Source: Thermoanaerobaculia bacterium (lineage in GTDB: Bacteria; Acidobacteriota; Thermoanaerobaculia; Multivoradales; UBA5704). From it: a stretch of DNA of 64,000 nt. Position 1 is the stretch's first letter, and every line of letters begins with the position of its first letter. The DNA lies in NCBI GenBank assembly GCA_036402955.1, contig DASWRX010000022.1:1442-65441 (forward strand), written 5' to 3'. Under the pieces are notes generated by a model. It saw only the letters and a list, made by a program, of their open reading frames with translations, did not search any database and had not been told where the DNA came from. This document shows, one piece after another, positions 1-57,027 of the stretch. The translations under genes were made by a program, and so were the position numbers.

Positions 1-3000
1 GCGTCCGCGTTACGAGAGCCATCGCGCGGCTGTCCTCCAGGGCCCAGACCACGCGTTCGCGGGGCCAGTGGGGATCGAGGGGGAGGAAGGCGCTCCCGGC
101 CTTCCAGACCCCGAGGGCGGCGGCGGCGAAATCGGCGGTGGCGGCGAGCTGGAGCGCGACGATGCGCTCCGGCCCCGCGCCGAGGGCCCGCAGGTGGTGC
201 GCCAGGCGGTTGGCCCGGCGGTCGAGCTCCTCGTAGGAGACCTCGCTCCCCTTCCAGACCAGGGCGGCGGCGGCCGGCCGTTGCCGGACCCGCTCCTCGA
301 ACAGCGCCAGGACGGACGGGGGGGTGGGCGGCTCGGGGACCGCGCCGCTCCACTCCGCGAGGAGCTGGCGGCGCTCCTCCGGCGCGAGCAGGCCGGCGTC
401 CGCGGCGGGCCGGCGCGGGTCGTCCAGCAGGCTCGCCAGCAGGGTCTCCAGATGGCCCCCCATGCGCCGGATCGTGGCGGCGTCGAAGAGATCGGCGTTG
501 TAGGCCAGCCGCGCCTCCAGGCCGTAGGAGGTCGCGGTGACCTGCAGCGTCAGGTCGTACAGCTCGACGGTGGAGCCCACGTCGAGGAAGCCGAGGGTGA
601 GGCCGGGGAGCTCCAGGGCGTGCCAGGGGGCGCTGCCCATGGCGAAGCAGACCTGGAAGACCGGGTGCCGCGACAGGTCGCGCGCCGGCTGCAGCTCCTC
701 GACCAGCCGCTCGAAGGGGAGATCCTGATGGGCGTAGGCGCCCAGCGCCATCTCGCGCACCCGCGCCAGCAGCCGGTCGAAGCCGGGATCGCCCGCGAGG
801 TCGGTCCGCAGCACCAGCATGTTGACGAAGAAGCCGATCAGCTTCGCCGTCTCCGCCCGGTTGCGGTTGGCGATCGGCGTGCCCAGGAGGAGGTCGCGCC
901 GTCCGGTGTAGCGCTGGAGCAGCGAGCCGAACGCCGCCAACAGGGCCATGAACAGGGTGACCCGGTGCGCGCGGGCGAGCGCGTGCAGGTCCTCCACCCG
1001 GGGGATCGGCACCACCACGAGGCCGCCGTCGTAGGTCTGCACGGCGGGGCGCGGCCGGTCGGCCGGCAGCTCGAAGACCAGCTCCGCGCCGGCGAGCTGC
1101 CGCCGCCAGTAGGCGAGCTGGGCGTCGAGGGCGGCGCCGCCGAGCCAGCGGCGCTGCCAGAGGGCGAAGTCCGCGTACTGGACCGGCAGCTCGGGCAGCG
1201 CGGAGGAGCGCCGCTCGACGAAAGCCGTATAGAGGGCCGCCAGCTCGCGGACGAACAGCTCCAGCGACCAGCCGTCGGAGACGATGTGGTGCATCGAGAG
1301 CAGGAGGACGTGGTTGTCGCTCTCCATGCGGAGCAGCGCGGCCCGCAGCAGCGGCCCGCGGGTCAGCGAGAACGGCCGCGCCATCTCCTGGCGGGCCTGG
1401 CGGAGCGCCTCCTCCTCGCGCGCCGCGGGAGCCAGCGGGCGCAGGTCGGCGAGCGGCAGCGCGAAGGGGCTGTGGGCATGGACGGTCTGCGCCGGCTGCC
1501 CCGCCGAGCCGACGCGGAAGGTGGTGCGCAGCGCCTCGTGCCGGCGGACGATCCCGTCGAGGGCGCGCTCCAGCGCCGCGGCGTCCAGCCGGCCGGTCAG
1601 CGAGAAGGCGGCCGCGACGTTGTAGAACGGGCTCTCGCCGCCGGCCATCTCGTCGAGGAACCAGAGCCGCTGCTGGGCGAAGGAGAGCGGGATCTCCGCC
1701 GGCCGCGGCATGGGGACGATCGGCGGCAGCTCCAGCCCCTCGCCCGCCAGCAGCAGAGCCTCGACGTGGTCGGCCAGCTCGGCCAGCGTGGGGTGCTCGA
1801 ACAGCGCCCGCGTCGGCAGCTCGACCCGGAAGGTGGCGCGGGCGAGCGAGGTCACGGCGGTGGCCGTCAGCGAGTGGCCGCCGAGGTCGAAGAAATTGTC
1901 GTGCGCCCCGACTCGCCGCGGCGGGACGATGCGCAGCACCTCCGTCCAGATCCCGGCGAGCACCTCCTCGACCGGCGTGCGGGGAGCCACCCAGCCGGCC
2001 GTCGCCGCGCTCTCCACCGCGCCGGGGTCCGGCAGCGCGGCGCGGTCCACCTTGCCGTTGGGCGTGCGGGGGAGGGCGGCGACCTCGACGAAGGCGGCGG
2101 GCAGCAGCGGCTCCGGCAGCTTCGCGGCCAGGAAGTCGCGCAGCTCCCGCGCGGCGGGGGCGGGAGCGCGCCGCGGCACCACCCAGGCGATCAGCGCCAG
2201 CTCTCCCGCCGCGTCGCGTCGGCCCCCCACGGCGCAGCCGGCGAGGGCGGGATGGACGGCGAGCGCGGCCTCCACCTCCGCCGGCTCGACGCGGAAGCCG
2301 CGGATCTTGAGCTGGCCGTCCACCCGGCCCAGGAACTCGACGGCGCCGTCCGGCCGGAAGCGGGCGAGATCCCCCGTCCCGTAGAGGCGGCTGCCGGGCG
2401 CCGCGTCCTCCCCGAGGACGGACGGGCGGGGCACGAAGCGCTCGGCGGTCAGGGCGGGACGGCCGCAGTAGCCGCGGGCGAGACCGTCGCCGCCGATGTA
2501 GAGCTCCCCGGCCACCCCGACCGGCACCGGCCGCAGGCTGGCGTCGAGCAGCGTCACCGTGGTGTTGGCGAGCGGGCGGCCGATGGGGACCGTGGCGGCC
2601 CCGGACGCCACCTCGCGGACCCGCTGCCAGGTGGTGAAGGTCGTCCCCTCGGTGGGGCCATAGACGTTCAGCAGCCGCGCCGGCGGCCCGGCCGCCAGCA
2701 CCTCCGCCATCCGGGTGGGATCGACCGCCTCGCCACCCACCAGCAGGTGGCGCATCATGGCGAAGCCGCCCGGGTCGAGGCTCGCCAGCCGGTTGAACAG
2801 GGCGGTGGTGAGGAAGCCGGCGGTGATCCCCCGCTCGCGGATCTCACGGTAGAAGTCCTCGGGAGAGAGGGTCACGTCGCGCTCGACCGCAACCAGCCGG
2901 CCGCCGTTGAGCAGCGCTCCCCAGACCTCGAAGGTGGCCGCGTCGAAGGAGGCGTTGGAGACCTGGGCGATCCGGTCGGCGGCGGTCAGCGGCGCGTAGT

Positions 3001-4948
3001 CGGCGTCGCGGACGAGCCGGACGACGGCGCGGTGGGGGACGGCGACACCCTTCGGCAGGCCGGTCGATCCCGAGGTGTAGACCACGTAAGCGAGGCTGTC
3101 CGGCGTGGCGCCGCCCGGGGGGAGATCCCCAGCCTCTTCCGCCGCCGCCAGCTCGTCGAGCAGGAGCGTGGGCGGCCGGGAGGCGGGGAGGCGGGAAGCG
3201 ATGTCCCGGCGGGTGATCAGGGCGCGGACCCGGCCGTCCTCCAGCATGAAGGCGAGCCGCTCGGCGGGATAACCGGGATCGAGCGGCAGGTAGGCGCCCC
3301 CGGCTTCCAGCGCCGCGAGCCAGGAGACCACCATCTCCGGTCCCCGCTCCAGGAAGACGCCGACGAGATCGTCCGGGCCGATCCCCAGCTCCCGCAGCCG
3401 CCGCGCCAGGCCGCGCGACCGCCGGGCCAGCTCGCGATAGCTCACGGTCTCCGCGGGGGAGACCAGGGCGGGGGCGTCGGGCGAGCGCTCCACCTGGGCC
3501 GCGAACAGGCCGGGGATCGTCGCCTCCCGGGGATAGCCGGTGCGGACGTCGTTCCACTCGGCGGCGAGCTGATGGCGCTCGGGATCCGTGAGCAAAGCGA
3601 GCTCCGAGAGGCGCCGCTCGGGGTGGCGCGCGGCGTCGCCGAGCAGGGTCCGCCAGTGGAGGGAGAGGCGGGCGACGGTCGGCGGCTCGAAGAGGGAGGC
3701 GGCGTACTCCCAGAAGCCGTGGATGCCGCCGGGGGCGTCCACCAGATTGAGGCTGAGGTCGAACTTGGAGGTGCCGGAGTGGACCTCGACCAGCTCCAGG
3801 CGAAGCTCCCCGCTTGCGGACGTGGGGACCGGCGGCCGCTGGACGCCGAGCGCTACCCGGAACAGCGGGTTCTGGTCGAGCCGCCGCTCGGGGCGCAGCT
3901 CCTCGACCAGCTTCTCGAACGGCAGGTCCGCGTGGGCGAAGGCCTCCACCGCCGCATCGCGCGTCCGGCCGAGCAGCTCGTGGAACGCCGGGTCTCCCGA
4001 GAGGTCGCCGCGCAGCGCCAGGGTGTTGACGAAGCAGCCGATCACCCCCTCGGTCTCCGTGCGCGTCCGGCCGGCGACCGGCGCGCCCACCACGAGGTCG
4101 GTCTGGCCGCCGTGCCGGGAGAGCAGCGCCTGGAAGCCGGCGAGGAGGGTCATGAAGAGCGTGCCCCCGGCGTCGCGCGAGAGGTCCCGCAGCTCTCCGG
4201 ACAGCTCCGGCGGCAGCTCGACCGAGTGCATGCCTCCCGCGCCGTCCGCAGTGCCGCGGGCATGGGGATGGTCGGCGGGGAGGGCGAGGTCCGCGGGGGC
4301 CCCTTCGAGGCGGCGGCGCCAGGGGGCGAGCTGCCGCTCCAGCGCCTCCCCCTGCAGCCACTCCCGCTGCCAGACCGCGAAGTCGGCGTACTGGATCGGC
4401 AGCTCGGCGAGCGTCGAGGGACGCCCCGCGCGGAACGCCGCGTAGACCTCCAGCAGCTCGCCGACGAGCAGGCCGAGCGACCAGGCGTCGGTGACGATGT
4501 GGTGCTGGTTGAGGAAGAGCAGGTGCTCCTCGCTCCCGAGCCGGAGCAGCAGGACGCGCAGCAGCGGCGCCCGGCCTAGATCGAACGGGCGCGCGGCCTC
4601 GCGCCGGATCAGCGCCCGGGTCTCCGCCTCCCGCCGGTCTGCCGGCAGCGCCGTCAGATCGACGGCGGGGAGGGGGACCGCGAGCGCCGCGGCGATCACC
4701 TGCACCGGCTCGCCCTCCTCCTCGGCGAACGAGGTGCGCAGGGTCTCGTGGCGGGCCACGACCGCGTCCAGGGCGGCGGCGAGCGCGCCGGAATCGAGAG
4801 GACCCCAGAGCCGCAGCGCGAGGGGGACGTTGTAGGTGGCGAGGCCCGGGCTCAGGGCGTCGAGCAGCCAGAGCCGCCGCTGGGCGAAGGAGACCGGGGC
4901 GACGAAAACCTCCGGCTCCAGCTCTTCGTAGGGGATCTCCTGGATCAT
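1..4948 (-). CDS. Non-ribosomal peptide synthetase, C-A-T-C-A(partial); 3' end runs off the window
   Basis: Absent from the ORF track because no stop lies inside the window. ATG at 4948 is 18 nt after the TAG (4967-4969) of the upstream NRPS, with an AGAGGA Shine-Dalgarno-like box. My own translation starts MIQEIPYEELEPEVFVAPVSFAQRRLWLLD. Motifs: C QHHIVTDAWS; A YTSGSTGLPKG / FDAATFEVW / NVYGPTEGTTF; T FFDLGGHSLTA; second C MHHIVSDGWS; then the start of a second A domain. No listed minus-strand ORF terminates in this frame, consistent with it staying open to the window edge. Confidence 0.88.
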   Translation of the reverse strand, partial: MIQEIPYEELEPEVFVAPVSFAQRRLWLLDALSPGLATYNVPLALRLWGPLDSGALAAALDAVVARHETLRTSFAEEEGEPVQVIAAALAVPLPAVDLTALPADRREAETRALIRREAARPFDLGRAPLLRVLLLRLGSEEHLLFLNQHHIVTDAWSLGLLVGELLEVYAAFRAGRPSTLAELPIQYADFAVWQREWLQGEALERQLAPWRRRLEGAPADLALPADHPHARGTADGAGGMHSVELPPELSGELRDLSRDAGGTLFMTLLAGFQALLSRHGGQTDLVVGAPVAGRTRTETEGVIGCFVNTLALRGDLSGDPAFHELLGRTRDAAVEAFAHADLPFEKLVEELRPERRLDQNPLFRVALGVQRPPVPTSASGELRLELVEVHSGTSKFDLSLNLVDAPGGIHGFWEYAASLFEPPTVARLSLHWRTLLGDAARHPERRLSELALLTDPERHQLAAEWNDVRTGYPREATIPGLFAAQVERSPDAPALVSPAETVSYRELARRSRGLARRLRELGIGPDDLVGVFLERGPEMVVSWLAALEAGGAYLPLDPGYPAERLAFMLEDGRVRALITRRDIASRLPASRPPTLLLDELAAAEEAGDLPPGGATPDSLAYVVYTSGSTGLPKGVAVPHRAVVRLVRDADYAPLTAADRIAQVSNASFDAATFEVWGALLNGGRLVAVERDVTLSPEDFYREIRERGITAGFLTTALFNRLASLDPGGFAMMRHLLVGGEAVDPTRMAEVLAAGPPARLLNVYGPTEGTTFTTWQRVREVASGAATVPIGRPLANTTVTLLDASLRPVPVGVAGELYIGGDGLARGYCGRPALTAERFVPRPSVLGEDAAPGSRLYGTGDLARFRPDGAVEFLGRVDGQLKIRGFRVEPAEVEAALAVHPALAGCAVGGRRDAAGELALIAWVVPRRAPAPAARELRDFLAAKLPEPLLPAAFVEVAALPRTPNGKVDRAALPDPGAVESAATAGWVAPRTPVEEVLAGIWTEVLRIVPPRRVGAHDNFFDLGGHSLTATAVTSLARATFRVELPTRALFEHPTLAELADHVEALLLAGEGLELPPIVPMPRPAEIPLSFAQQRLWFLDEMAGGESPFYNVAAAFSLTGRLDAAALERALDGIVRRHEALRTTFRVGSAGQPAQTVHAHSPFALPLADLRPLAPAAREEEALRQARQEMARPFSLTRGPLLRAALLRMESDNHVLLLSMHHIVSDGWSLELFVRELAALYTAFVERRSSALPELPVQYADFALWQRRWLGGAALDAQLAYWRRQLAGAELVFELPADRPRPAVQTYDGGLVVVPIPRVEDLHALARAHRVTLFMALLAAFGSLLQRYTGRRDLLLGTPIANRNRAETAKLIGFFVNMLVLRTDLAGDPGFDRLLARVREMALGAYAHQDLPFERLVEELQPARDLSRHPVFQVCFAMGSAPWHALELPGLTLGFLDVGSTVELYDLTLQVTATSYGLEARLAYNADLFDAATIRRMGGHLETLLASLLDDPRRPAADAGLLAPEERRQLLAEWSGAVPEPPTPPSVLALFEERVRQRPAAAALVWKGSEVSYEELDRRANRLAHHLRALGAGPERIVALQLAATADFAAAALGVWKAGSAFLPLDPHWPRERVVWALEDSRAMALVTRT

Positions 4949-4966
4949 GGTCCTCTTCTCTTCTCT

Positions 4967-7900
4967 CTAGACGGTGCGCCGGACCCGTCGCGGGAGAGCC
5001 GCGAGGTCGGGCTCCGGCGCGGCGTCTGCCGCGGCTTCGACGGCGCGAGCCATCGCCGCCAGCGTGGGGGCGTGGAAGACGACCTGGGCGGAGAGGTCGC
5101 GGCGGAAGCGGTCGCGCAGCCGGGAGGCCAGCCGCGTCGCCAGCAGGGAATGGCCCCCCAGCTCGAAGAAGTCGTCCTCCCGGCCCACCCGCTCGACCCC
5201 CAGGAGGTCGCGCCAGAGCTCCGCGAGGGCCTGCTCGACGGGGGTGGCGGGCGGCGCGAAGGCGGCGGACCCCTGCCGCTCCGGCGCCGGCAGGGTCCGC
5301 CGGTCCAGCTTGCCGCTGGGCGTGCGCGGCAGGGCGGGGAGGGACTGGAAGGCGGCCGGCAGCATGTGCTCCGGCAGGCTCCGGCGGAGGAAAGCGCGCA
5401 GCTCGGCCGCGTCCGGCAGAGCCGTGCCGGCCGGGCCCGCCGGCACCCACCAGGCGGCGATTCCGGGCTCTCCCGGAGCGATCTCGCGCACCGCCGCCGC
5501 GCACTCGCGCACGGCGGGATGGCGCCCGAGGGCCGACTCGATCTCCCCCAGCTCGATGCGGAAGCCGCGCACCTTCACCTGCCGGTCGACGCGGCCGAGG
5601 AACTCCAGGTCGCCGTCTGGCAGCCGGCGGGCGAGGTCGCCGGCGCGGTACAGACGAGCTCCCGGCTCGCCGCCGAACGGGTCGGGGACGAACCGCTCGG
5701 CCGTCAGCTCCGGCCGCTGGAGATAGCCGCGGGCGAGCCCGGCGCCGCCGACGTTGATCTCGCCGGGGACGCCGATGGGGACCTCCTCGCCGCGCGGTCC
5801 CAGCAGGCGGAGCGAGAGATCCGGCAGCGGTGGGCCGATGCGGCTGCGCGAGGCGGCGGCGTCCGCCCGCTCGACCGGGCGCCAGGTGACGTGCACCGTG
5901 GTCTCGGTGATGCCGTACATGTTGGCCAGCCGGGGTTGCCGGTCGCCGTGGCGCTCGATCCAGGGGCCGAGGCTCCGCGGATCGAGCGCCTCGCCGCCGA
6001 AGATCACCCAGCGCAGGGCGAGGAACCGCGGGGCGCCGGCCTCGGCATCGACGAGACTGAGCTGGCGGAAAGCGGAGGGGGTCTGGTTGAGCACCGTTAC
6101 CCCCTCCTCGGCCAGCAGCTGGTGGAAGTCGCGGGGGGAGCGGACGGTCTCGGAGGGGGGCACCACCAGCCGGCCGCCATGGAGCAGGGCGCCCCAGATC
6201 TCCCACACCGAGAAGTCGAAGGCGTAGGAGTGGAAGAGGGTCCAGACGTCCCCGGGGCCGAAGCCGAAGCGGGAGCGGGCGGCCGCGAACAGCCGGGCGA
6301 CGTTGCCGTGGGTGACCACGACCCCCTTGGGGCGGCCGGTCGAGCCGGAGGTGTGGATGACGTAGGCGGGATGGTCCGGCAGCAGACCGGTCTCCGGGGC
6401 GCGCTCCGCCTCGTCGCCGGTCTCCAGGATCACCAGGCGCGCGTCTCCCCGCGGGATCGACTCCGCGAGGGCGGCCTCGACGAGCAGCACCGGCGCGCCC
6501 TCCAGCATCGCCACCAGCCGCTCCGGAGGATAGGCGGGATCGAGGGGGACGTAGGCGCCGCCGGCCTTGAGCACGCCGAGCAGGGCGACCAGCATCTCCA
6601 GGCCCCGGTGGACGCACAGCGCCACCCGCACCTCGGGCCCCACGCCCAGCGCGCGGAGCCGGTGGGCGAGGGCGTTGGCCTTGCGGTCCAGCTCCCGGTA
6701 GGTCAGGCCGTGGCCCTGGTGGATGACCGCGACCACGTCCGGCGTCCGCGCCGCCTGCGCCTCGAACCGGCGGGGGAGGGGAGCGACCGGGAGGCCGTCG
6801 GTACCGGCGGCCTCGGCGTTTCCCCAGGCCCGGAGCTGCTCCCGTTCGGCCGCCGCCAGCATCGGCAGCTCGGATATGCGCCGGCCTGGCTCGGCCACCG
6901 CCGCGGCGAGCAGGGTGGTCAGGTGGCGGCCCATCCGCTCGATCGTGGGGGCCTCGAACAACGAGGTATTGAGCTCGAGTTGCAGGATGCCGAGCCGCCC
7001 GCGCTCCATGCCGGCGAACAGGATGAGGTCGGTCTGCGACGTGCCGTTGTTGATTCCCCGCGGCTCGACGGCGAGGCCGGGCAGCGCGAGGTCGGGGCTC
7101 GGCGTGTTCTGCAGCGAGAACATGGCCTGGAAGATCGGGCCGTAGCTGGGGTCCCGACGGGGGCGCAGCTCCTCGACCAGCTTGTCGAACGGCAGCTCCT
7201 GGTGCTCGTAGACGTCGAGCACCACGTCGCGCACCCGCGCCAGCAACTCGCCGAAGGTGGGATCGCCGTCCAGGCGGACGCGGAACACCACGGTGTTGAC
7301 AAAGAAGCCGATCAGCCCCTCGGTCTCCATGTTCGTGCGCCCCGCCACCGGCGCGCCCAGCACCACGTCGTCCTGGCCGCTCCAGCGGTGGAGCAGGGCG
7401 TCGAAGCCGGCGAGCAGCACCATGTAGAGGCTGGCCCCGGCGAGGTGCGTGTGCCCGGCCAGGGCGTCGGGGAGCCCGGCGGGGAGGTCGAGCGTCACCC
7501 GCTCGCCGCCGTAGGCGCGCGCCGCCGGCCGCGGCCGGTAGGTGGGCAGCTCCAGCCGGTCGGGAGCGCCGGCGAGCTGCCCCTTCCAGAAGCGGAGCTC
7601 CTCCTCCAGCCGCTCCCCCTGGAGCCGCTCGCGCTGCCAGAGCGCGAAGTCCGGATACTGGACGAACGGCTCCGGCAGCGGCGAGGGGAGCCCCTGCGCG
7701 AACGCCGTGTAGAGCACCGACAGCTCGCGGTAGAAGACGCCGAGCGACCAGGCGTCCGAGATGATGTGGTGCATGGTCACCAGCAGCAGATGGACGCGGC
7801 CGCCGAGGCGCAGCAGGTGGGTGCGCCAGAGCGGCCCGCGCGCCAGGTCGAACAACCGGCGGGCCTCCTCCCGGGCGAGCTCCCAGGCGGCCTCTTCGCC

Positions 7901-8308
7901 GCGGTCCGCGGGAAGCGCGGAGAGGTCCACCCGCGGGATCGGGCGGGGCACGTGCGGCTGGATCACCTGGAAGGGGACGCCGTCCTGGTCGGCGAAGACC
8001 GTGCGCAGCGACTCGTGGCGGCGCTCGATCTCCTGGAAACAGCGCTCGAGAGGGCCCGGCCGCAGCTCCCCGGTGAGCCGGAAGCAGAGCAGGGGGAGGT
8101 TGTAGAAGGGATTTCCCGGCTCCATCTGGTCGAGCAGCCAGAGCCGCTGCTGCACCAGCGAGGCGGCCACCGGCGCCTCCCCGGCCGGGCGCGGCAGGAT
8201 CTCCGGCGCCTGCGCGCCCCAGCCGCTCTCGGCCAGCCGGCGGGCGAACAGGGCCCGCTGCTCCGGCGAGAGGGCGGCGAGGCCCTTGTGCAGCTCGCGA
8301 AGACTCAT
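4967..8308 (-). CDS. Non-ribosomal peptide synthetase, single module C-A-T
   Basis: Track ORF 4967..8392. I prefer Met29 (ATG at 8308, MSLRELHKGL...), 22 nt after the radical SAM stop. Motifs: C MHHIISDAWS; A IHTSGSTGRPKG, FDFSVWEIW, NMYGITETTVHVT; T FFELGGHSLLAT. Confidence 0.9.
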   Translation of the reverse strand: MSLRELHKGLAALSPEQRALFARRLAESGWGAQAPEILPRPAGEAPVAASLVQQRLWLLDQMEPGNPFYNLPLLCFRLTGELRPGPLERCFQEIERRHESLRTVFADQDGVPFQVIQPHVPRPIPRVDLSALPADRGEEAAWELAREEARRLFDLARGPLWRTHLLRLGGRVHLLLVTMHHIISDAWSLGVFYRELSVLYTAFAQGLPSPLPEPFVQYPDFALWQRERLQGERLEEELRFWKGQLAGAPDRLELPTYRPRPAARAYGGERVTLDLPAGLPDALAGHTHLAGASLYMVLLAGFDALLHRWSGQDDVVLGAPVAGRTNMETEGLIGFFVNTVVFRVRLDGDPTFGELLARVRDVVLDVYEHQELPFDKLVEELRPRRDPSYGPIFQAMFSLQNTPSPDLALPGLAVEPRGINNGTSQTDLILFAGMERGRLGILQLELNTSLFEAPTIERMGRHLTTLLAAAVAEPGRRISELPMLAAAEREQLRAWGNAEAAGTDGLPVAPLPRRFEAQAARTPDVVAVIHQGHGLTYRELDRKANALAHRLRALGVGPEVRVALCVHRGLEMLVALLGVLKAGGAYVPLDPAYPPERLVAMLEGAPVLLVEAALAESIPRGDARLVILETGDEAERAPETGLLPDHPAYVIHTSGSTGRPKGVVVTHGNVARLFAAARSRFGFGPGDVWTLFHSYAFDFSVWEIWGALLHGGRLVVPPSETVRSPRDFHQLLAEEGVTVLNQTPSAFRQLSLVDAEAGAPRFLALRWVIFGGEALDPRSLGPWIERHGDRQPRLANMYGITETTVHVTWRPVERADAAASRSRIGPPLPDLSLRLLGPRGEEVPIGVPGEINVGGAGLARGYLQRPELTAERFVPDPFGGEPGARLYRAGDLARRLPDGDLEFLGRVDRQVKVRGFRIELGEIESALGRHPAVRECAAAVREIAPGEPGIAAWWVPAGPAGTALPDAAELRAFLRRSLPEHMLPAAFQSLPALPRTPSGKLDRRTLPAPERQGSAAFAPPATPVEQALAELWRDLLGVERVGREDDFFELGGHSLLATRLASRLRDRFRRDLSAQVVFHAPTLAAMARAVEAAADAAPEPDLAALPRRVRRTV

Positions 8309-8330
8309 CGGGTGTCTCCAGATCCCGGCC

Positions 8331-10223
8331 TTACGCGGGGACCGCCTCCATCGGGGCGTAGCGCCGGAGAATCCGTTCCGGCCGGGTCTCATCCGGAAGG
8401 ACGAGGCTCACCAGCCGCGGCCCGTCCTCGAAAACGAGCTCCAGGGCGCGCAGCCGGTCCAGCCCGGCGTCGAGGTCCAGCGGCGGATCGAAGGCGACCT
8501 TGGCCAGCTCCTGCAGGGTGGTCGGCTCGGCCAGGGCCTCCAGCAGCCGGCGGCCCGCCTCGCCGACGTCGTGGACGACCGTGGACCCGGAGCGGGTGTC
8601 GCGCACCGTCCGGCCGCCGGGCCGCTCGAAGTGGAGCACCGGGGGTCTCCCCTCGACCCAGGCGGCGCGCCAGGTCCCTTGAGCCTTGCGCATCCGGTTG
8701 ATCCAGCGGGCGACGGCCAGGAAGTAGGGGGCCGCCATGTTGCGATCGGCGAAGTAGTAGGCCAGGTTGCGCAGGCTCTCCGGCGGCAGGGGATAGACCT
8801 GTGGGTAGAAGTCGAGCGGCGTCAGGTCCAGCCCATACTGCGCGGCCTGGGTGAAGTAGGGGCTGAAGCGGTCGAAGCGGACGGGGAAGACCCCGGACGG
8901 GGGAGGCAGGTGGACCAGCCGCGGGATCACCTCGACGTAGCGCTTGAAGACCTCCTCACCCTCGCCGGGGAAGCCGACCAGGAGGTTCCACGCGGGGTGG
9001 AGGTCGTGGACCAGGCAGTGCCGGAGGAAGGCGACGTTCCGCACCGAGGTCATCCCCTTGCGCATCAGCTTGAGCGTCGAGGTCGCCAGCGCCTCGATCC
9101 CGGGCTGGACGGAGTGCACCCCGCCGGCCGCGAGCAGCTCGATCTCCTCTTCGGTGAGATCGGCCTTGACCTCGTAGAAGATGGCCGCCCCGGGCGGCGT
9201 CTCGAGCCTGGCGAGCACCTCGCGCGGGTACTCCTTCGGCATGATGTTGTCCACGCAGTTGAACTGCCGGGCCCGCGGGAAGTAGGCGAAGAGGGAGCGG
9301 ATCGCCGCCACCGCCTTCTCCGGCTGCATCCAGCGGAAGCCCATGGTCGAGCCGTTGAGCCCGCAGAAGGTGCAGTGGGCCCGCTCCCCCCACCAGCAGC
9401 CGCGCGAGGTCTCGAACATCAGCGCGGGCTCCAGCCCCGCGCCGGCGAAGGCCCCCTCGAAGGAGCGCAGGAAGGAGTCGTAGTCGAGCGGCACCTCCTC
9501 GTCGATGTCCAGCTCGGCGCCGATCACCGCGGCGCCGGGAGAGCCAGCGCCGTCATAGCGGCCCGAGCGGCGGGTGAAGACGCCGTCGATCCGCTCCGCC
9601 CGCTCGCGGTCCCCGGCCAGGAGGCCGTCGACCAGCTCGGGGAAGGAGAGCAGGGCGGGACCCGAGAAGACATAGTCGATCGCCGCCACCCGGCGGGCGA
9701 TCTCCTCCCCCATGGGGGACTCGCAGTTGGCGCCCCCGATGGCGGTGACCACCCGCGGGTTGCGCTCCTTGAGCCGCCGGGCGAGGGCGAAGGAGGCCAC
9801 GTTCTGGCCGAACATGGAGGTGAACCCCACCAGGTCGGACTGATCGAGCCGGTAGGTCTCGATCACCCCGTCCAGCCAGCGGCTGAGCCCCGGGCGCGCC
9901 GCCAGCAGGCGGTCGAACGCCGCCTGCCGCTCGTCCCGCGCCGGGAAGTAGCGCTGCCGGTACGTGACGGCGTTGTCCGGCGCCTCCGGGAAGGCGAGCT
10001 GGCGGAAGAGCCAGTCCCCCAGCCCCGAGTGCGAGGCCTCGTCGCACGCCTGGAGATAGTCGGCGAGCCCCAGCAGGCGGCAGGCGTCGTGCGAGGCGTA
10101 GCAGATGTCGACCGGGACCCCGGACCCGAACCGGCGGCGGATCATGGTCTGGAGCTGGGTCAGGGCGATCGAGGGGATCTCGATCGAGGAGAAGGGCATG
10201 TTGACGAGAGAGATCCGGAACAT
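8331..10223 (-). CDS. B12-binding-domain radical SAM enzyme of the RiPP-maturation (C-methyltransferase-like) type
   Basis: 630-aa ORF starting MFRISLVNMPFSSIEIPSIALTQL. Rossmann-like cobalamin-domain segment VGFTSMFGQNVASFALARRLKERNPRVVTAIGGANCE. Cys triad with CX7CX2C spacing in SRGCWWGERAHCTFCGLNG. GAGGAG Shine-Dalgarno box 5-6 nt before the ATG. The family assignment is from memory of the CWWG...CxFCGLN signature, not from a search. Confidence 0.8.
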   Translation of the reverse strand: MFRISLVNMPFSSIEIPSIALTQLQTMIRRRFGSGVPVDICYASHDACRLLGLADYLQACDEASHSGLGDWLFRQLAFPEAPDNAVTYRQRYFPARDERQAAFDRLLAARPGLSRWLDGVIETYRLDQSDLVGFTSMFGQNVASFALARRLKERNPRVVTAIGGANCESPMGEEIARRVAAIDYVFSGPALLSFPELVDGLLAGDRERAERIDGVFTRRSGRYDGAGSPGAAVIGAELDIDEEVPLDYDSFLRSFEGAFAGAGLEPALMFETSRGCWWGERAHCTFCGLNGSTMGFRWMQPEKAVAAIRSLFAYFPRARQFNCVDNIMPKEYPREVLARLETPPGAAIFYEVKADLTEEEIELLAAGGVHSVQPGIEALATSTLKLMRKGMTSVRNVAFLRHCLVHDLHPAWNLLVGFPGEGEEVFKRYVEVIPRLVHLPPPSGVFPVRFDRFSPYFTQAAQYGLDLTPLDFYPQVYPLPPESLRNLAYYFADRNMAAPYFLAVARWINRMRKAQGTWRAAWVEGRPPVLHFERPGGRTVRDTRSGSTVVHDVGEAGRRLLEALAEPTTLQELAKVAFDPPLDLDAGLDRLRALELVFEDGPRLVSLVLPDETRPERILRRYAPMEAVPA

Positions 10224-10281
10224 ATCTGGTCTCCTCAGGAGAGACTCATTCTGACATTGAACATTGTAAATAATCTGGCCG

Positions 10282-21449
<11,168 letters not shown>

Positions 21450-21453
<4 letters not shown>

Positions 21454-24400
21454 CCGGCCGTCACGGCCTCCCGCGCGGCCAGCCGCCGCAACTCGGCTAG
21501 GTGCTGGAGACTGTCCATCACCGAGGGGACGTCCACCCCGAAGTCGAGCAGGCAGCCGACCTCGTCCACCCCGATCTCGCGCAGGCGGTGGACCATGGCG
21601 AGGCAGCTCTCGGGCGTCCCCAGCAGCGAGCCGCTCTGGAAGTAGCGCTCGAACTCCATCATCAGCAGCTCCTCCAGATCCTCCTTGGAGAAGCTCTCCT
21701 CGTCGAAGCTCTGGTGGAGGCTGCGGGCGAGCGAGGTGAGCAGCTCGGTGTGCGAGCGCAGGTAGTCGCAGAAGGGGGCGCGCACCGTCTCCTTGACCCG
21801 CGCGAGATCGTCGCCCACGAAGGTGTGGAGCATCACCGCCACCTGTCCCGACTTCGGATCGTGGCCGGCCCTGGCGCGGCTGTCGCGGTAGAGGGCGATC
21901 CGCTGGGCGAGGACCTCGGGGCTGAGCCCGATCAGCGAGGTGAGGACGTTGGCGCCGATCCGCCCCGTATCCTCGAAGGTCTGCGGATTGTTGGCGCAGG
22001 TCACCCAGACCGGCACCTCGGGCTGCACCGGCCTGGGGAAGAGCTCGACCTGGATCTCGTTGCCGGCGCCGCCGCGCACGGTGATCCTCTCCCCCCGCCA
22101 GAGGCGGCGGACGGTCTCGATGCGTTCGAACATCACCTCGCGCCGGTTGGCGTAGACGTCGGGGAAGAAGGCGAAGTCGTTGGGGTGGAACCCGGAGGCG
22201 AAGGCGAGCCCCACCCGCCCGCGCGAGAGGTTGTCGACGATCGACCACTCCTCGGCCACCCGGATCGGGTCGTGGAGGGGAAGCACGACACTGCCGGCGC
22301 GGATGTGGAGGCGCTCGGTGACCATGGCGAGGCCGGCGCTCAGCACCGAGGGGTTGGGGTAGAGGCCGCCGAAGCTGTGGAAGTGGCGCTCCGGGGTCCA
22401 GATGGCGGTGAAGCCGTTGCGGTCGGCGAACTTCGCCCCCTCGACGATGAGCTGGTATTTGTACTCCGGGAACATCGCCTCGTTGCCGGAGAAGAAGAAC
22501 AGGCTGAAGCGCAGGCCGCTCTCCTTCCCGCCGCCCGGACGGACGGCCGCCGGCGCGGGCGCGGCCGGAACGACCGGAACGGTGGGCGGCGTGGCGGCGG
22601 GGACCGCCGCCCGCACCTCCTCCAGGATGCGGGCGCGGGCGGTGAGCGCCTCGAGCCCCGGCTGGCGCTCGGCCACGATGCGGGCGAGGCCGCCGACCGT
22701 CGGGCTCTCGAAGAAGGAGCGCACCGAGAGCTTGACGCCGAACACCGACTGGATGCGCGAGATGGCCTGGAGGGCGATCAGCGAGTTGCCGTTGAGGCGG
22801 AAGAAGTTGTCCTCCACCCCCACGCGCTCGATCCCCAGCAGGGTCTGCCAGAGGTCGGCCAGGATCTCCTCGACCTCGTTGCGCGGGGCCACGTAGCCGC
22901 CCGGCGCGGCCTTCGAGTCGTAGCGGCTGTCGACGTAGGAGAGGGCTGGAGCGGCGATCGGCGGCGCGGCCTCGGCGGCCAGCGCCAGCGGCGCCGCGGT
23001 CTCGGCGCGCGGGGCCACGGCGGGGCCCGCGGTTCCCGCCAGCTTCTCGAAGTCGATCCAGTGGCGCTGCCGCTGGAAGGGATAGGTGGGGAGCGGCACG
23101 CGCCGGCGCCGACGGCCGTTGTGGAAGGCGCTCCAGTCCACCTCCACCCCCGCCACCCAGAGGCCGCCGAGGGCCTGTAGCAGGGTGTCGAAGGGATCGC
23201 GCGGGTCCTTGGGGTGGGGGAGGCACGGGAGGCACGGCAGCACCACCTGGCCGGCTGTGCGCGCCGCGCGCGCCGGATGCTGCCGCGCCGCGCCGGAGAG
23301 CGCCTGCGCCGGTCCGACCTCCAGGAGCGCCGCCCCGGGCCGGGCGAGCAGGGCGCCGATCCCTTCGGCCAGCCGCACTGTGCGGCGGAGCTGGCGGCTC
23401 CAGTAGCCGGGATCGGTGGCCTCGGCGGGGGTGATCCAGCCGCCGGTGACGTTGGAGACGAAGGGGATGCGCGGCGGTGAGAGCCTCACCTTCCGCACCT
23501 CCTCCCGGAACGGCTCCATGACGGGATCCATCATCGGTGAATGGAAGGCGTGGGAGGTGTGGAGCGTGCGGCTCTCGACCTCGCGCCCGGCGAGGAGGGC
23601 CGTCAGCCGCTCGATCTCGTCCGGCGGGCCGGCGACCACGCACATCTCGGGCCCGTGGACCGTCGAGAGGGCGAGGTTGCCGCCGAGCAGCGGCGCGACC
23701 TCCGCCTCGGAGAGGGGGATCGCCAGCATGTCTCCCTTGGGGCACGCGCCCATCAGCCGGCCGCGGGCCGCCACCAGCCGCGCCGCGTCTTCCAGCGAGA
23801 AGACCCCGGCCACGCAGGCCGCCACCAGCTCGCCCAGGCTGTGGCCCAGCAGGGCCTTCGGCTGCACCCCCCAGCTCATCCAGAGCCGCGCCAGCGCCCA
23901 CTCGACGGCGAACAGGGCCGGCTGGGCGACCTCGGTCCGCTCCAGCCGGGCGGCGAGATCCGCCGGGTCCAGACCGCCCGCGAGAGCGGGGTCCACGAAG
24001 GTCCGCACGTCGATCCCGGCGTGCTCCTGGAACAGCGCGGCGCAGCGGTCGAGCTCGGCGCGGAAGGTCTCCTCGCCCCGGTAGAGCTCCCGCGCCATGC
24101 CGGGGTGCTGCGCGCCCTGGCCGGGGAAGAGGAAGCAGACCGTGCGGTTGCCGCCGTCGTGGACGCCGGTGGTCACCCGGGGGGCGTCGAGAGCCGTGAG
24201 GGCCGCCCGCGCGTCCTCCGTCCCGCACGCCGTGACGGCCCGCCGGTGCTCGAAGGGCCGGCGGCCCACCTGCAGAGTGAACGCGACGTCGGCGAGGTCG
24301 GTGCCCGGGCGCTCGGCGAGGAAGCCCGCGAGGTCGCGGGTGGCGGCGTCGAGCGCAGAGGCGTCGCGGGCGGAGAGGACCAGGAGCTGCCAGGGCCGGT

Positions 24401-25745
24401 CCGGATCGGTGGGCGCGGGCACGGGCGCCTCCTCCAGCACCACGTGGGCGTTGGTGCCGCCGAAGCCGAACGAGCTGACGCCGGCCCGCCGCGGCCCCTC
24501 CGGCCAGGGGGCGAGGTCGGGGTTGACGAAGAACGGGCTGGCCGCGAAGTCGATCTGCGGATTGGGCCGCTCGAAGTGGAGGCTCGGCGGGATCTCCCCG
24601 CGCTCGACCGCCAGCGCCGCCTTGATCAGCCCGGCGATCCCCGCCGCCACCTCCAGGTGGCCGAGATTCGTCTTCACCGAGCCGACGGCGCAGAACCCCC
24701 GGCGCGAGGAGGTGCGGCGGAAGGCCTTGGTGAGCGCCGCGATCTCCACCGGATCGCCGAGGGCGGTCGCGGTGCCGTGGGCCTCGACGTAGCCGATCGA
24801 GTCGGCGTCCACGCCGGCGTTGGCGAGCGCCTCGGAGATCACCTCCGCCTGGCCGGCCACGCTGGGGGCGGTGAAGCCGGCCTTGGTGGCGCCGTCGTTG
24901 TTGACCGCCGAGCCCTTGAGCACGGCGTGGATCGTGTCGCCGCCGGCGAGCGCGTCCTCCAGCCGCTTGAGCACCACGACGCCGGCGCCGCAGCCGAAGA
25001 CGGTGCCGGCGGCGCGGGCGTCGAAGGCCCGGCAGTGCCCGTCGGGCGAGAGGACCCCCCCCTCCTGGTAGACGTAGCCGCTCTTCATCGGCACCGTCAG
25101 CGACACGGCGCCGGCGAGCGCCATGTCGGTCTCCCCCGCGATCAGCCCCTGGGCCGCCATGTGGACGGCGACCAGCGAGGTGGAGCAGGCGGTCTGCACG
25201 GTGACGGCGGGGCCGCGCAGGTCGAGCTTGTAGGCGACGCGCGGCGCCAGCGAGTCCTTGTCGTTGCCCACCGCCAGCATCGTGGTGTCGACGCCGATCG
25301 CCTGCAGCCGGTCGCGCAACGGATCGAGCGCCAGCAGGTAGCTCGACAGGGTGACGCCGCCATAGACGCCGATCACCCCGGGGGACCGTGACGGGTCGTA
25401 GCCGGCCCGCTCCAGCGCCTCCCACGCGCACTCGAGGAAGAGGCGCTGCTGGGGGTCCATCACCTCCGCCTCGCGGGGGGAGTAGCCGAAGAAGCCGGCG
25501 TCGAAGAGCTCGATCCCCTCCAGCGCGGCGTGGGCGGGGACGTAGCCGGGAGCCTCGTAGACCGCCGGCGGGATGCCCGCCGCCCGCAGCTCCTCGGCGG
25601 AGAAGAAGGAGACCGATTCGACCCCGTTGCGCAGGTTGCGCCAGAATCGCTCGGGGTCCGCCGCGCCGGGGAAGCGACAGGCGAGGCCCACGATGGCGAC
25701 GTCGGTCGGGGATCCAGTGGAGGAGGGGGTCTCGTCGCGGCTCAT
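21450..25745 (-). CDS. Type I polyketide synthase module KS-AT-carrier protein fused to a C-terminal luciferase-like (FMN-dependent) monooxygenase domain
   Basis: Real part of track ORF 21450..26573, from Met277 (MSRDETPSS...). The ATG at 25745 overlaps the upstream TGA (ATGA). KS motifs TACSTSLVA, EAHGTAT, NLGH. AT motifs GHSLGE and HAFHS. Carrier motif FFRLNGNSLIAL. LLM domain begins GLRFSLFFFSGNEAMFPEYKYQLIVEGAKFADRNGFTAIWTPERHF... and is contiguous to the stop. Confidence 0.9.
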
Positions 25746-28700
25746 GGGCGCGTCCTCTTGAGGCTGGTCCGGCGGTCCCTCCGGAGCTCGCCCCGGCTCG
25801 ACCGCGCTTCGAACGGATCGGCCCGCTCCCCGCCGGTGTCCTCCGCCACGAAGCGGGCGATGGCATCCACCGTGGGGTGCTCGTACAGACTGAAGGTGCG
25901 TCCGTCCAGGTCGAAACGTGCCTGGACTGCGTGGACCACCTGGAGGCCGACCAGTGAGTCCCCCCCGAGCTCCAGAAAGTTGTCGAGGGCGCCGATCCGC
26001 TCGATGCCGAGGGCCCGGCTCCAGATCTCGGCGACCGCCCGCTCGGTCTCGTCCCGGGGAGCGACATAGGGATTGCGGAGGAGGGGCCGGTCGTGGATCG
26101 CCTGGAGCGCGGCCGGGGAGGGGAGAGCGGGAAGCCGTTCCTCGACGCTCTCCGGAGCCTCCGGATGGTCTCCCCCGGACCGCCGCGCCGCCGTCACTCC
26201 TTTCGCGAGGAGGAGGTCGGCTGCCGGGCCGATCCCGTCCTCGCTCTCCCACAGCAGGGCCAGGATGCCGGTCCGGCGCTCCGCCAGGGCCGCGAGATAG
26301 CGGAAGGTGGGGGGATCGGCCGTATGGAGGACGGCAGAGAGGGGGGTCCGCTCCGGCTCGCGGAGCGTCCGTGCCTCGGCGAGGTCGCGGACGAAGAGGA
26401 CCTTCGTTCCTTCCACCCGCTCCGCGGGCCGGCGGGCCACGAGCAGGGCGGAGTCCCCAGCTCCCGAGCAGGCCTGAGGCTCGGCGAAGCCGCAGCGGGC
26501 GAGCAGCCCCTCCCAGGCCTCGGGACCGAGCAGCGGCGAACCCCGCCGCAGCTCCCCGTCCTCGAAGCTCCACCAGCCGTCGGTCAATCCCCAGACCAGG
26601 GTCCCCCAGCGCTGGGGATGGACGGTCTCGACCAGGCCCAGCAGGCCGCCGGGGGCGAGCAGCGAGCGCAGGTTCGCCAGGGTCTCCGCCAGGCGCGGCG
26701 TGGCATGGACCACGTCGGCCCCGATCACGGCGTCGAAGGTTCCCGGCGCGAACCCCTGCGACGCCGGATCGCGGGTGACGTCCAGCATCCCGAAACGGAG
26801 GAAGCCCTGGCCGGCCTCCCGCGCCCGCCGCTCGGCGCGCAGCACGAAGGCGCGGCCGACGTCCGTGAAGTGGTACTCGACCTCCCGTCCATTGAGGGCG
26901 GGGAGCAGCTCCGCCGTCAGCGTCCCCTGGCCGGCGCCGATCTCCAGGATTCTATAGGGCGGGTCATTCGACGGCCGCTCCCGGACCGCGGCGGCCAGCA
27001 CCTCGCGCAGCAGGCGGGCGGCGGCGTTCGGCCCCTCTCCCTGCCGGGAGAACAGCTCGGAGCTCCCGTCGGGATAGAGCACCGCGAGCCCCGGCACCTC
27101 GCCGGAGAGGGCCGCGGGGTAGTGATGGCCGCAGTGGTCGATCAGGTCATAGAGCGGGCCGAAGCCGGGGAAGCGCGTCTCCAGGGCCCGGCGGGTCTCG
27201 GCGGGGAACGGAGCCGCGGCCATGGCGGGGAGGAACCGGACGGCGTCCCCGTCCACCTCGGCCAAGCCGTCCTCTCGCAGTACGCCAAGAAGGAAGTCCA
27301 GGAGGCGCTCGTACTTCGGGAGCAGCCGGAGGCGGCGGCGCAGCTCGGGAAGGGGGATGGCGGGCCCTTGCGGGAGGCCGTCCCGAAAATACTCGACGGC
27401 GTGGCTCGTCACCAGCGGATCGGTCGCCTCGGCCATCTGCGAGGCGGGCTCCGCGGAAGATTCCGCCGCGATCTCCCGGGCCATCCGCCCGATCTCGGCG
27501 GCGTCCGGCCCGGTCTCCTGGCGGCCGGGCGCGGGGGCCACGTTTTCCCAGGTCTCGCGCCAGCGCTTGCCGCCGCGGTGGGCGATCACCGTTCCGGCCT
27601 CGAAGGGGGCGGCGATCTCGGCCAGGACGCGGGCGGTCCACCGGCGCGCCTCCGGGCCCTCCAGAACTGGGGGCGGCTCCACGTCCAACCCGCGCCCGGG
27701 GATGCCCAGGGCCGCGCAGACTCCCAGCAGAGCCGCGCGCTCGGGGTCGGCGTCCGCTCCCGAGGTGATCACGTCCACCTTCACCGCAAGAGGTCTGCCG
27801 CGGAGGGCCGCGGCGAGCGCGTCGAGACCCCGCGCCGCCGCATGGACGATCCGCAGCGGCCGGCCCTCCTCCATGCCCTCCAGGACCGCGGCCAGCAGCG
27901 CCGCGAAATCCTCCGCCCGCCCGGGATCGACGGTGAAGGCGCCGGCCGACAGCCGCGAGAACCCCGCGCCGGGGACCGCGACGACCGGCTCCAGCCGTTC
28001 CGCCTGGAGGCCCTGGACGATCAGGGAGCCCATCCCTCCCTCCTCGATGACGGCCAGCCAGACCGCGCCCTCCCCCCGCAGGTCGTCTTGCGAGGAGACC
28101 GGGAGCGTCTGCCGCCAGAGCGGCGTCTGGAGGACAGGGCCGGTCGTCCCGGCCGTTTCCGGCTGGGATTGAATCCAGTAACGCCGCCGCTCGAAGGGAT
28201 AGGTCGGGAGAGAGACCTTCCGCCCCGGCGTGCCCACCGCGCTCCAGTCCACCTCCACACCCGCCAGCCAGAGCCGGCCCAGGGCTTCGAGCAGGCTCTC
28301 CCGCGCGGCGGTGGGCGCTGCCGGATGGGGGAGTGAGGGGACCGCCTCCCCCCCGTGCCGGCGGACCAGCGAGGCGAGCGTCCGCCCCGGACCCACCTCC
28401 AGCAGCACCCGCCGCCGGTCGGCCAGCAGCTCGGCCACGGCGGGCGAGAAGCGCACGGTCCGCCGCAGCGATTTTCCCCAGGTGGCGGGGTCCATCGCCT
28501 GCTCGATGGTGATCCAGCCGCCGGTGAGGTTCGACAGCCAGGGGATCTCCGGCGCGCCGGGCCGGGTCCGCCGCACCGCGTCCACGAAGGCGTCCAGGAT
28601 CGGCTCCAGGCTGCGCGAGTGGAACGCCCGGCGCACCGGCAGCGGGCGCGCGTCGATCCCCCGCGCCGCCAGCCTCTCTCGGAGCCGCCCGACCGCCTCG

Positions 28701-30765: not shown

Positions 30766-30769
<4 letters not shown>
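25742..30769 (-). CDS. Type I polyketide synthase module KS-AT-(unassigned ~330 aa)-methyltransferase-ACP
   Basis: 1675-aa ORF. KS motifs TACSTSLVAV, EAHGTATPMGDP, NLGHLDAAAG. AT motifs GHSLGE and RAFHS. SAM-MT motif I YRILEIGAGQGTLT. Carrier motif FLELGGDSLVGL. No NADPH-binding KR, DH or ER signature seen. The ATG at 30769 overlaps the permease stop. Confidence 0.9.
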
Positions 30770-33186
<2,417 letters not shown>

Positions 33187-33310
33187 CCGTCCTCTCCCCT
33201 CCGGCCGGTGGCTCCTGAAGGGTCTCTCAGAATACACCAATGTCTATAAGCCATTGCCTGGAGCGCGCCGGGGGGGTGGGCTGAGGGGAGGGTCGGCGCC
33301 GCTGTGGATC

Positions 33311-47829: not shown

Positions 47830-47836
47830 GAAAGCC

Positions 47837-49744: not shown

Positions 49745-49869
49745 TCCGTCCGTCTTTGAGGACGGCCGCGGCCTCGTTTGGCAACGAAACCTTCCTTTGC
49801 TTGGCCCTCTGCAGGCCGGGAATGAATTTTGCGAAGGGCGAAGGCGTCAGCTTTTTCAGAAAGGGAGGG

Positions 49870-56995: not shown

Positions 56996-57027
56996 TCCGC
57001 GTGAATCGTAGTGGCACGATAGAATGG

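Follow-up and report, generated by a model that had tools for sequence, protein, structure and literature searches.

DscE, a 693-aa methyltransferase of the radical S-adenosylmethionine type (SAM; rSAM for the radical enzymes) that depends on cobalamin, is encoded in the discodermin non-ribosomal peptide synthetase (NRPS) cluster of 'Ca. Entotheonella monilis' (PMC12858407, Nat Chem Biol, Nov 2025). Acting in vitro on the free peptide, it converts discodermin D to B (Val5 to tert-leucine, t-Leu) and also B to A; its nearest homolog, MCL4542996.1 (52% identity), bears the product name of the NCBIfam family TIGR03975, and its authors call the pairing of NRPS and rSAM C-methyltransferase 'an unusual enzyme combination' (PMC12858407). 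Several other B12-dependent rSAM enzymes, i.e., PoyB/PoyC (polytheonamide), the bottromycin methyltransferases and MpcB (clavusporin), for which a CX7CX2C motif has been described, are proposed or shown to C-methylate the side chains of ribosomal peptides, and C-methylation by PoyC was shown in vitro (PMC5682303, PMC11285071, PMC10849626). An rSAM methyltransferase within an NRPS cluster is also known from the argyrins, where Arg1 turns argyrins A/B into the methylated C/D, and from Swb7/Orf29 (MeACC), found with NRPS genes, Orf29 methylating SAM itself as building-block supply (PMC8719831, PMC7277169). Here we report on a 64,000-nt stretch of DNA (hereafter the window, meaning the whole stretch) from a Thermoanaerobaculia bacterium (assembly GCA_036402955.1, contig DASWRX010000022.1, positions 1,442 to 65,441), in which a gene of the TIGR03975 family, coding for a protein with the fold and the intact motifs of a B12-dependent rSAM enzyme, is embedded in conserved fashion among NRPS genes and has no precursor peptide gene beside it. 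Judging from its characterised relatives, we consider that the gene product is probably a B12-dependent radical C-methyltransferase that tailors the product of the surrounding hybrid polyketide synthase (PKS)-NRPS line and not a ribosomal peptide. The gene, its parts and the genes on either side are as follows.

8331..10223, minus strand: TIGR03975-type (PoyC/DscE-like) cobalamin-dependent radical SAM enzyme, 630 aa (open reading frame (ORF), NCBIfam, Pfam, AlphaFold2 (AF2) model, Foldseek)
9351..9407, minus strand: predicted [4Fe-4S]/SAM cluster motif SRGCWWGERAHCTFCGLNG (CX7CX2C), aa 273-291, with C276, C284 and C287
9594..10223, minus strand: N-terminal Rossmann-like cobalamin-binding domain (about aa 1-210), from the strand-helix alternation of the AF2 model and the fold match; boundaries approximate
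8388..8666, minus strand: C-terminal winged-helix domain, aa 520-612, of RRE-like (RiPP recognition element) topology in the AF2 model (domain model pLDDT, the predicted local distance difference test score, 94.4)
10224..10281, minus strand: 58-nt spacer, AT-richer, with a GAGGAG ribosome-binding-like site; its sole ORF is MFNVRMSLS* (9 aa)
10282..21470, minus strand: four-module NRPS, A-T-C-A-T-C-A-T-C-A-T (4 A, 3 C, 4 T; Pfam); start approximate (frame plot)
4967..8308, minus strand: single-module NRPS C-A-T with a Thr-like code, DFWNIG.. (Pfam); starts 22 nt past the stop of the rSAM gene

A first-pass annotation, made from the letters alone, had singled out this 630-aa protein by its N-terminus, MFRISLVNMPFSSIEIPSIALTQL, and by its cysteine triad, and had placed it among the maturation rSAM C-methyltransferases for peptides that are made by the ribosome and modified after translation (RiPPs). 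All the elements it described are present in the translated ORF, and the three cysteines of the motif are invariant in an alignment of 44 homologs. The family placement is borne out by profile search: the protein scores 515.1 bits against TIGR03975 (cutoff 281.85), and the match is collinear and spans the profile from end to end (1-606 of 606); the Radical_SAM core of Pfam is detected as well. In the literature that was searched, TIGR03975 occurs only in pipeline mentions, and the name rSAM_ocin_1 was not found. As the sole match in a sequence search of the PDB had E = 0.36, we turned to fold comparison. The AF2 model, with the 44 homologs as input, reached a pLDDT of 90.9, and its top Foldseek matches in the PDB were TokK, OxsB, MgmA (a glutamine methylase) and CysS (E = 1e-13 to 1e-10, 525-750 alignment columns); it aligns with TokK, OxsB and CysS over about 550 columns, the N-terminal domain included in the case of TokK. 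The model thus supports, at the level of fold, an N-terminal cobalamin-binding Rossmann domain, which is what the first-pass annotation had suspected of this segment.

The gene sits tightly between its neighbours. The upstream NRPS, which closes with a T domain and a short tail, has its stop codon (TGA) at 10282-10284 and the rSAM gene its ATG at 10223, leaving the 58-nt spacer; the rSAM gene closes with a TAA (8331-8333) and the next NRPS opens with an ATG at 8308, leaving 22 nt between them, so that the spacings and the common strand agree with what had been read at first sight, as does the limit of 9 aa on any peptide encoded in the 58-nt spacer. The intergenic gaps of the cluster are 22, 58 and 70 nt. 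No promoter-like or terminator-like site was scored in 8200-10400, and this includes a sigma-70-like promoter within the spacer 10224-10281. Given the two short spacers, the single strand and the lack of such sites in between, the rSAM gene would be co-transcribed with the PKS-NRPS line. Its GC content at third codon positions (0.94) is similar to that of the flanking genes. The spacer itself (TTATTTACAATGTTCAATGTCAGAATGAG...) is far richer in AT than its surroundings, the window as a whole having a GC content of 72%.

In order to see how far this arrangement extends, we compared 86 loci. Six of them are metagenomic (L001-L006) and were obtained by exact protein look-up; the other 80 are those that scored best when a single genome for each GTDB species was scanned, a family member being present in at least 599 of these genomes. 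NRPS and PKS neighbours were detected with the C, A and KS domains of the window as tblastn queries. The nearest relatives form a tight clade (60-78% identity, n = 8 with the window) of Thermoanaerobaculia/Acidobacteriota metagenome-assembled genomes and unbinned metagenome contigs, and in all eight an NRPS condensation domain lies just downstream of the rSAM gene. Where contexts were annotated with Pfam (L001-L005), an NRPS gene is found on both sides (5/5), and in L001, L002, L003 and L005 a single-module C-A-T gene comes right after the rSAM gene; the order NRPS-rSAM-NRPS holds in these five loci and also in L044 and L052, where the condensation domain begins 267-380 nt downstream. The arrangement is confirmed as not owing to chance, being the same in each close relative examined. 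Even the order of specificity codes is kept within the clade, a Val-like DALWLGGTF and a Leu-like DAWFLGHVV being followed by the rSAM gene and a Thr-, Ser- or Pro-like module; in the four-module NRPS of the window these two codes are the third and fourth, after DFMNNGLVF and DIFHFGLIL.

Over the whole set of loci, condensation domains occur within the available flank (up to 10 kb) in 43 of the 58 loci at 40% identity or more and in 0 of the 28 at 39% or less (Fisher p = 9e-12), the split at 40% being descriptive and not a defined boundary; when the comparison is restricted to loci whose flanks each measure 5 kb or more, the counts are 29/33 and 0/16 (Fisher p = 1.4e-9), and both p-values overstate the evidence because related loci are not phylogenetically independent. 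The NRPS-carrying loci belong to Acidobacteriota, Planctomycetota, Actinomycetota, Proteobacteria, Gemmatimonadota, Bacteroidota and other phyla. Two metagenomic members at 50-51% identity (P0101 and P0103) are located in NRPS clusters that also hold thioesterase genes and one for MbtH, and in Streptomyces musisoli and Verrucosispora the gene shares its operon with NRPS genes and with those for TauD-type dioxygenases, MbtH and a tryptophan halogenase. The groups on either side of the 40% split come apart cleanly in a neighbour-joining tree. The tree was midpoint-rooted as no usable outgroup was at hand, and the direction of recruitment, supposed by the first-pass annotation to run from RiPP to NRPS, cannot be read from it and is not established. 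Among the relatives fetched, the NRPS-linked branch outnumbers the RiPP-linked one, and the rule given in the first-pass annotation that such enzymes normally sit next to NHLP/Nif11-type precursor genes is correct for the RiPP-linked branch and fails for the other, larger one.

All 129 ORFs of 35-160 aa in the six frames of window positions 1-45000 were screened for precursor peptides against 18,950 NCBIfam models (E <= 0.01), and not one matched any model. As a positive control, the intergenic small ORFs beside family members of 31-39% identity yielded precursors of the NHLP, Nif11, aroma-sacti and sactipeptide types, and the earlier impression that no precursor-like ORF lies nearby is thereby upheld for the screened part. 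No match was obtained in the window by phmmer with NHLP/Nif11 seeds either; these seeds found just three RiPP-type loci, and the NCBIfam screens were used instead. When the small ORFs around the rSAM genes of all loci were clustered, most of the clusters proved to be shadow ORFs in other frames of NRPS genes, MbtH being the sole genuine conserved small protein, and no conserved precursor. Nor did the 64 kb of the window contain a RiPP protease, transporter, cyclodehydratase or other RiPP maturation or export gene. Three of the RiPP-type relatives with precursors nearby (32-38% identity) illustrate the other arrangement: in L072 there is an NHLP-type ORF (7068-7730, plus strand) that ends in ...SEEQLESVAGG and then a core of aliphatic, glycine-rich character, in L073 a tandem series of several NHLP-like copies (5287-6916, plus strand), and in L071 a Nif11-type peptide (7297-7545, minus strand).

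The C-terminal winged-helix domain is shared with the RiPP-linked members of the family, which have the same full domain architecture. In the model it runs through strands at 530-532, 539-542 and 549-552 and helices at 554-563, 570-574 and 584-593, and ends with two further strands; three strands followed by three helices is the order typical of RREs, and at the level of fold the domain is thus RRE-like. By sequence, profile or solved structure no kinship with PqqD or RREs was found: Foldseek with the domain returned generic winged-helix matches only (E > 0.3, McbB at rank 34), Pfam had no match in aa 502-630, and hhalign of the domain profile against PqqD gave a probability of 1%. Several of the few changes that discriminate the clades lie in or beside the domain, i.e., L561, L564, a 4-residue insertion at 524-527 and Y500.

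The protein shows all that one would look for in a class B rSAM methylase and no feature that would suggest another activity. Taken together, these observations suggest a C-methyltransferase of class B, from the same lineage as PoyC and DscE, whose gene is co-transcribed with a hybrid PKS-NRPS line. By analogy with PoyC and DscE, the [4Fe-4S] cluster held by the CX7CX2C motif would reductively cleave SAM to a 5'-deoxyadenosyl radical, which would remove a hydrogen at an aliphatic side chain, from a carbon that is sp3 and unactivated; the methyl group would then come from methylcobalamin located in the N-terminal Rossmann domain, and a second SAM would re-methylate the cobalamin. The reaction could take place on the released peptide, as with DscE in vitro, or on a carrier-bound intermediate. 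Methyl transfer, target residue and timing are what we infer from these relatives and from the gene context. The target would most likely be a Val-, Leu- or Ile-type residue (possibly Val to tert-Leu), and we favour an aliphatic one because Val-like and Leu-like modules lie just upstream of the rSAM gene and their codes are conserved in the close clade.

Several points weigh against this interpretation, and the overstated p-values mentioned above belong with them. The B12-binding model of Pfam matches aa 120-197 below its cutoff (19.1 vs 32.1 bits), and some B12-rSAM enzymes, e.g., OxsB, the second-best fold match, are non-methylating. The kinship of DscE and the window enzyme is deduced solely from the product name of the nearest homolog of DscE (52% identity). 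The specificity codes were read with a GrsA reference fragment and a code-to-substrate table (the control, DAWTIAAIC, was reproduced), and Val/Ile-like codes are seen in just about 21 of 45 NRPS-type loci. Since the 80 genomic loci were taken from the top of a list of at least 599, the proportions given describe relatives of the window protein and not the whole family, and even in the group at 40% identity or more, a few members (L006, L016, L022, L041 and L043) have no NRPS within 10 kb.

Other explanations were weighed against the same evidence. The chemistry might be as proposed and the timing another, the enzyme working in trans on a carrier-tethered amino acid or peptidyl intermediate, or making a methylated building block, and we regard this as rather unlikely. 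The winged-helix domain would in this case dock on the NRPS (a T domain or the inter-protein docking tails) and not on a leader peptide. The gene lies exactly at the junction of two NRPS proteins, T domain and tail on one side and C domain on the other, and this is kept in 8/8 close-clade loci; of the 43 NRPS-type loci, 17 have a same-strand C domain that begins 130-580 nt downstream of the rSAM gene (the window being the eighth close-clade member); TokK and CysS, the fold relatives, were crystallised with pantetheinylated substrates; several of the clade-discriminating residues and indels fall in or beside the winged helix; and the conserved, non-canonical Leu-like code of the module just upstream, DAWFLGHVV, could fit a pre-methylated residue. 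However, DscE, the sole characterised NRPS-linked relative, acts in vitro on the free mature peptide, and the congeners of discodermin point to methylation at a late stage (PMC12858407), little can be read about timing from gene position, many NRPS-type loci have the gene 1-7 kb from the NRPS, and neither RREs nor carrier-binding domains gave a significant match to the winged helix. A bolder version, i.e., that the NRPS-linked TIGR03975 branch methylates T-domain-tethered intermediates at inter-protein junctions with a winged helix re-purposed from leader binding to NRPS docking, strikes us as unlikely; if true, it would amount to a trans-acting radical tailoring gated by a RiPP-style recognition module, unlike the post-release activity of DscE in vitro.

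A reaction without methyl transfer on the NRPS/PKS product (a rearrangement, ring contraction or cyclisation, C-C crosslink or epimerisation) appears improbable to us. It would draw on the rank of OxsB among the structural matches and on the NRPS-linked branch scoring 100-170 bits lower on TIGR03975 than the RiPP-linked one (515-547, or 523-547 without the window protein, vs 630-682) and differing at a few otherwise fixed positions, which leaves room for some functional drift; yet OxsB does not surpass the methylases TokK, CysS and MgmA as a fold match, the match to TIGR03975 is collinear over its whole length, and the characterised CX7CX2C members in the cited papers are all C-methyltransferases (PoyC and DscE by work in vitro, MpcB by work in vivo, the motif of DscE being unstated). 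Most improbable of all is that the enzyme is a true RiPP maturase in an incidental NRPS neighbourhood, with its precursor gene elsewhere in the genome. While the protein does pass the TIGR03975 cutoff with the full architecture of RiPP-linked members, winged helix included, and no more than 64 kb of the genome lies in the window, independent metagenomes show the same NRPS embedding at 60-78% identity and it extends to 40-53% in many phyla, the gene lies within an operon with spacers of 22 and 58 nt, the screen that finds precursor families beside the 31-39% members finds none in window 1-45000, and the protease, transporter and cyclodehydratase of a RiPP pathway are likewise missing from the window. 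Methylation of the PKS-NRPS product remains, in our judgement, the probable function, and the first-pass proposal that an enzyme of RiPP-maturase type tailors a non-ribosomal peptide appears right in the light of DscE.

The remainder of the assembly line and its vicinity consist of the following features.

2..4966, minus strand: further NRPS (C-A-T-C...; Pfam), running off the window start
21450..25760, minus strand: PKS module KS-AT-ACP with a luciferase-like monooxygenase domain (Pfam); start approximate
25742..30769, minus strand: PKS module KS-AT-methyltransferase-ACP (Pfam)
30766..33240, minus strand: ADOP-family duplicated permease (MacB/FtsX type; TIGR03434, 925 bits), likely exporter
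33311..34804, minus strand: second B12-binding radical SAM protein, 497 aa, a possible tailoring enzyme going by the gene contexts of its homologs

A 5261-aa ORF at 10282..26067 (minus strand) was rejected as a real gene, having been over-extended as a result of the high GC content: about 1500 aa at its N-terminus are an out-of-frame read through the PKS gene at 21450-25760, and the true NRPS start is at about 21.47 kb. The PKS type with the luciferase-like monooxygenase is also found upstream in L001, L002 and L005. The second B12-rSAM protein (33311-34804) was considered as a paralog of the TIGR03975 gene and rejected as unrelated; it stays below every NCBIfam family cutoff. Its gene lies just upstream of the ADOP permease and PKS genes, and about 100 homologs were found, under the product name 'cobalamin-dependent protein'. 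The homolog gene in L089 is divergently oriented beside an NRPS of more than 4534 aa, and the one in L090 belongs to a cluster of tailoring genes that code for methyltransferases, P450s, an SfmD-like peroxidase and a SAM synthetase; based on these two contexts, the cluster of the window may hold two distinct B12-rSAM tailoring enzymes. In L006, the TIGR03975-type gene (10001-11890, 53% identity) has an exopolysaccharide and PEP-CTERM-type neighbourhood with a phosphopantetheinyl transferase and another B12-rSAM gene, and two unannotated small ORFs lie just upstream of it (9143-9568, minus strand, and 9546-9872, plus strand).

Some 3 kb upstream of the cluster transporter there is a gene for an MprF-like lysyl-phosphatidylglycerol synthase (36043-38604, minus strand). 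MprF shields membranes from cationic peptides, and the gene could for this reason provide self-resistance against the cluster product. Apart from this synthase, the other genes of the window include two ADOP permeases, CorA, an S8 protease and an ECF sigma/anti-sigma pair, as well as phospholipase D paralogs, sulfatase-TPR paralogs and dehydrogenases. Tandem pairs occur as well: two genes at 51572-53236 and 53238-54854 (both plus strand) are 59% identical to each other and have no match among the Pfam families, just upstream of this pair lies another gene of about the same size (49756-51519, plus strand), likewise without a family, and further tandem pairs code for phospholipase D (46390-49105), Zn-dehydrogenase (54858-57040) and sulfatase-TPR proteins (57890-62169).

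Among the relatives fetched, our results suggest that the branch to which the window protein belongs travels with NRPS genes and not with precursors. The literature that was searched, mostly without subscription journals, contains no statement on the size or taxonomic breadth of this NRPS-linked TIGR03975 branch, nor that it is systematically labelled as RiPP or that the gene is fixed in mid-operon in Thermoanaerobaculia clusters. Several compounds of unexplained origin that are predicted to be NRPS/PKS products, e.g., hemiasterlin and plocabulin (PMC12858407), contain tert-Leu or further C-methylated residues, and the NRPS-linked branch offers a ready list of candidate enzymes for such residues, one that includes cultured, genetically tractable Streptomyces, Kitasatospora, Nonomuraea and Verrucosispora, among them Streptomyces musisoli CH5-8 (L031), Streptomyces canus 299MFChir4.1 (L039), Kitasatospora sp. 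NPDC006697 (L037), Nonomuraea soli DSM 45533 (L026) and Verrucosispora sp. TAA-831 (L024). Moreover, the mid-operon position and the retained winged helix make radical methylation on the line, as opposed to after release, a testable matter.

How the window enzyme relates to the systems described so far can be put as follows. TokK/ThnK and CysS, of class B among the rSAM methyltransferases, have substrates that are pantetheinyl or carrier-linked, and they include the best structural matches to the window enzyme (TokK 7kdy, E = 1.5e-13, TM score about 0.5; CysS 9n1b, E = 9e-11); CysS moreover functions in an NRPS pathway (cystobactamid), a setting like that of the window enzyme. Sequence identity to them is only 12-14%, no NCBIfam family is held in common, and the C-terminal winged-helix domain of the window enzyme has no counterpart in their aligned region. 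PoyB/PoyC, the bottromycin methyltransferases and MpcB are similar in the CX7CX2C motif and the B12-dependent rSAM architecture, and by analogy with them the window enzyme would be expected to methylate unactivated side-chain carbons; the window enzyme itself passes the curated cutoff of TIGR03975, a model named for RiPP maturation C-methyltransferases. Those enzymes act on ribosomal precursors encoded nearby, whereas the window enzyme has NRPS/PKS neighbours and no precursor, and the RiPP-linked members of its own family in our sample are just 31-39% identical to it. Arg1 and Swb7/Orf29 demonstrate that the pairing of rSAM methyltransferase and NRPS predates 2025; they are set apart by their description, not being reported as of the TIGR03975 or CX7CX2C type. 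For an rSAM methyltransferase from a family annotated as RiPP maturases, placement in an NRPS pathway was first proven experimentally in 2025 with DscE, a kind thus known for about one year, and the 'new substrate class' that the first-pass annotation had envisaged for the family was overtaken by the methylation of free discodermin in vitro (PMC12858407). Like DscE, the window enzyme is encoded inside an NRPS cluster without a precursor peptide; the discodermin NRPS contains Val modules, and one module of the window line may, by its Val-like code, also be for Val. Unlike DscE, from a 'Tectomicrobia' sponge symbiont, it is 630 and not 693 aa long and comes from another phylum (likely Thermoanaerobaculia), and while DscE is listed after four NRPS proteins in the published table, the window gene is wedged between the NRPS genes of a PKS-NRPS hybrid.

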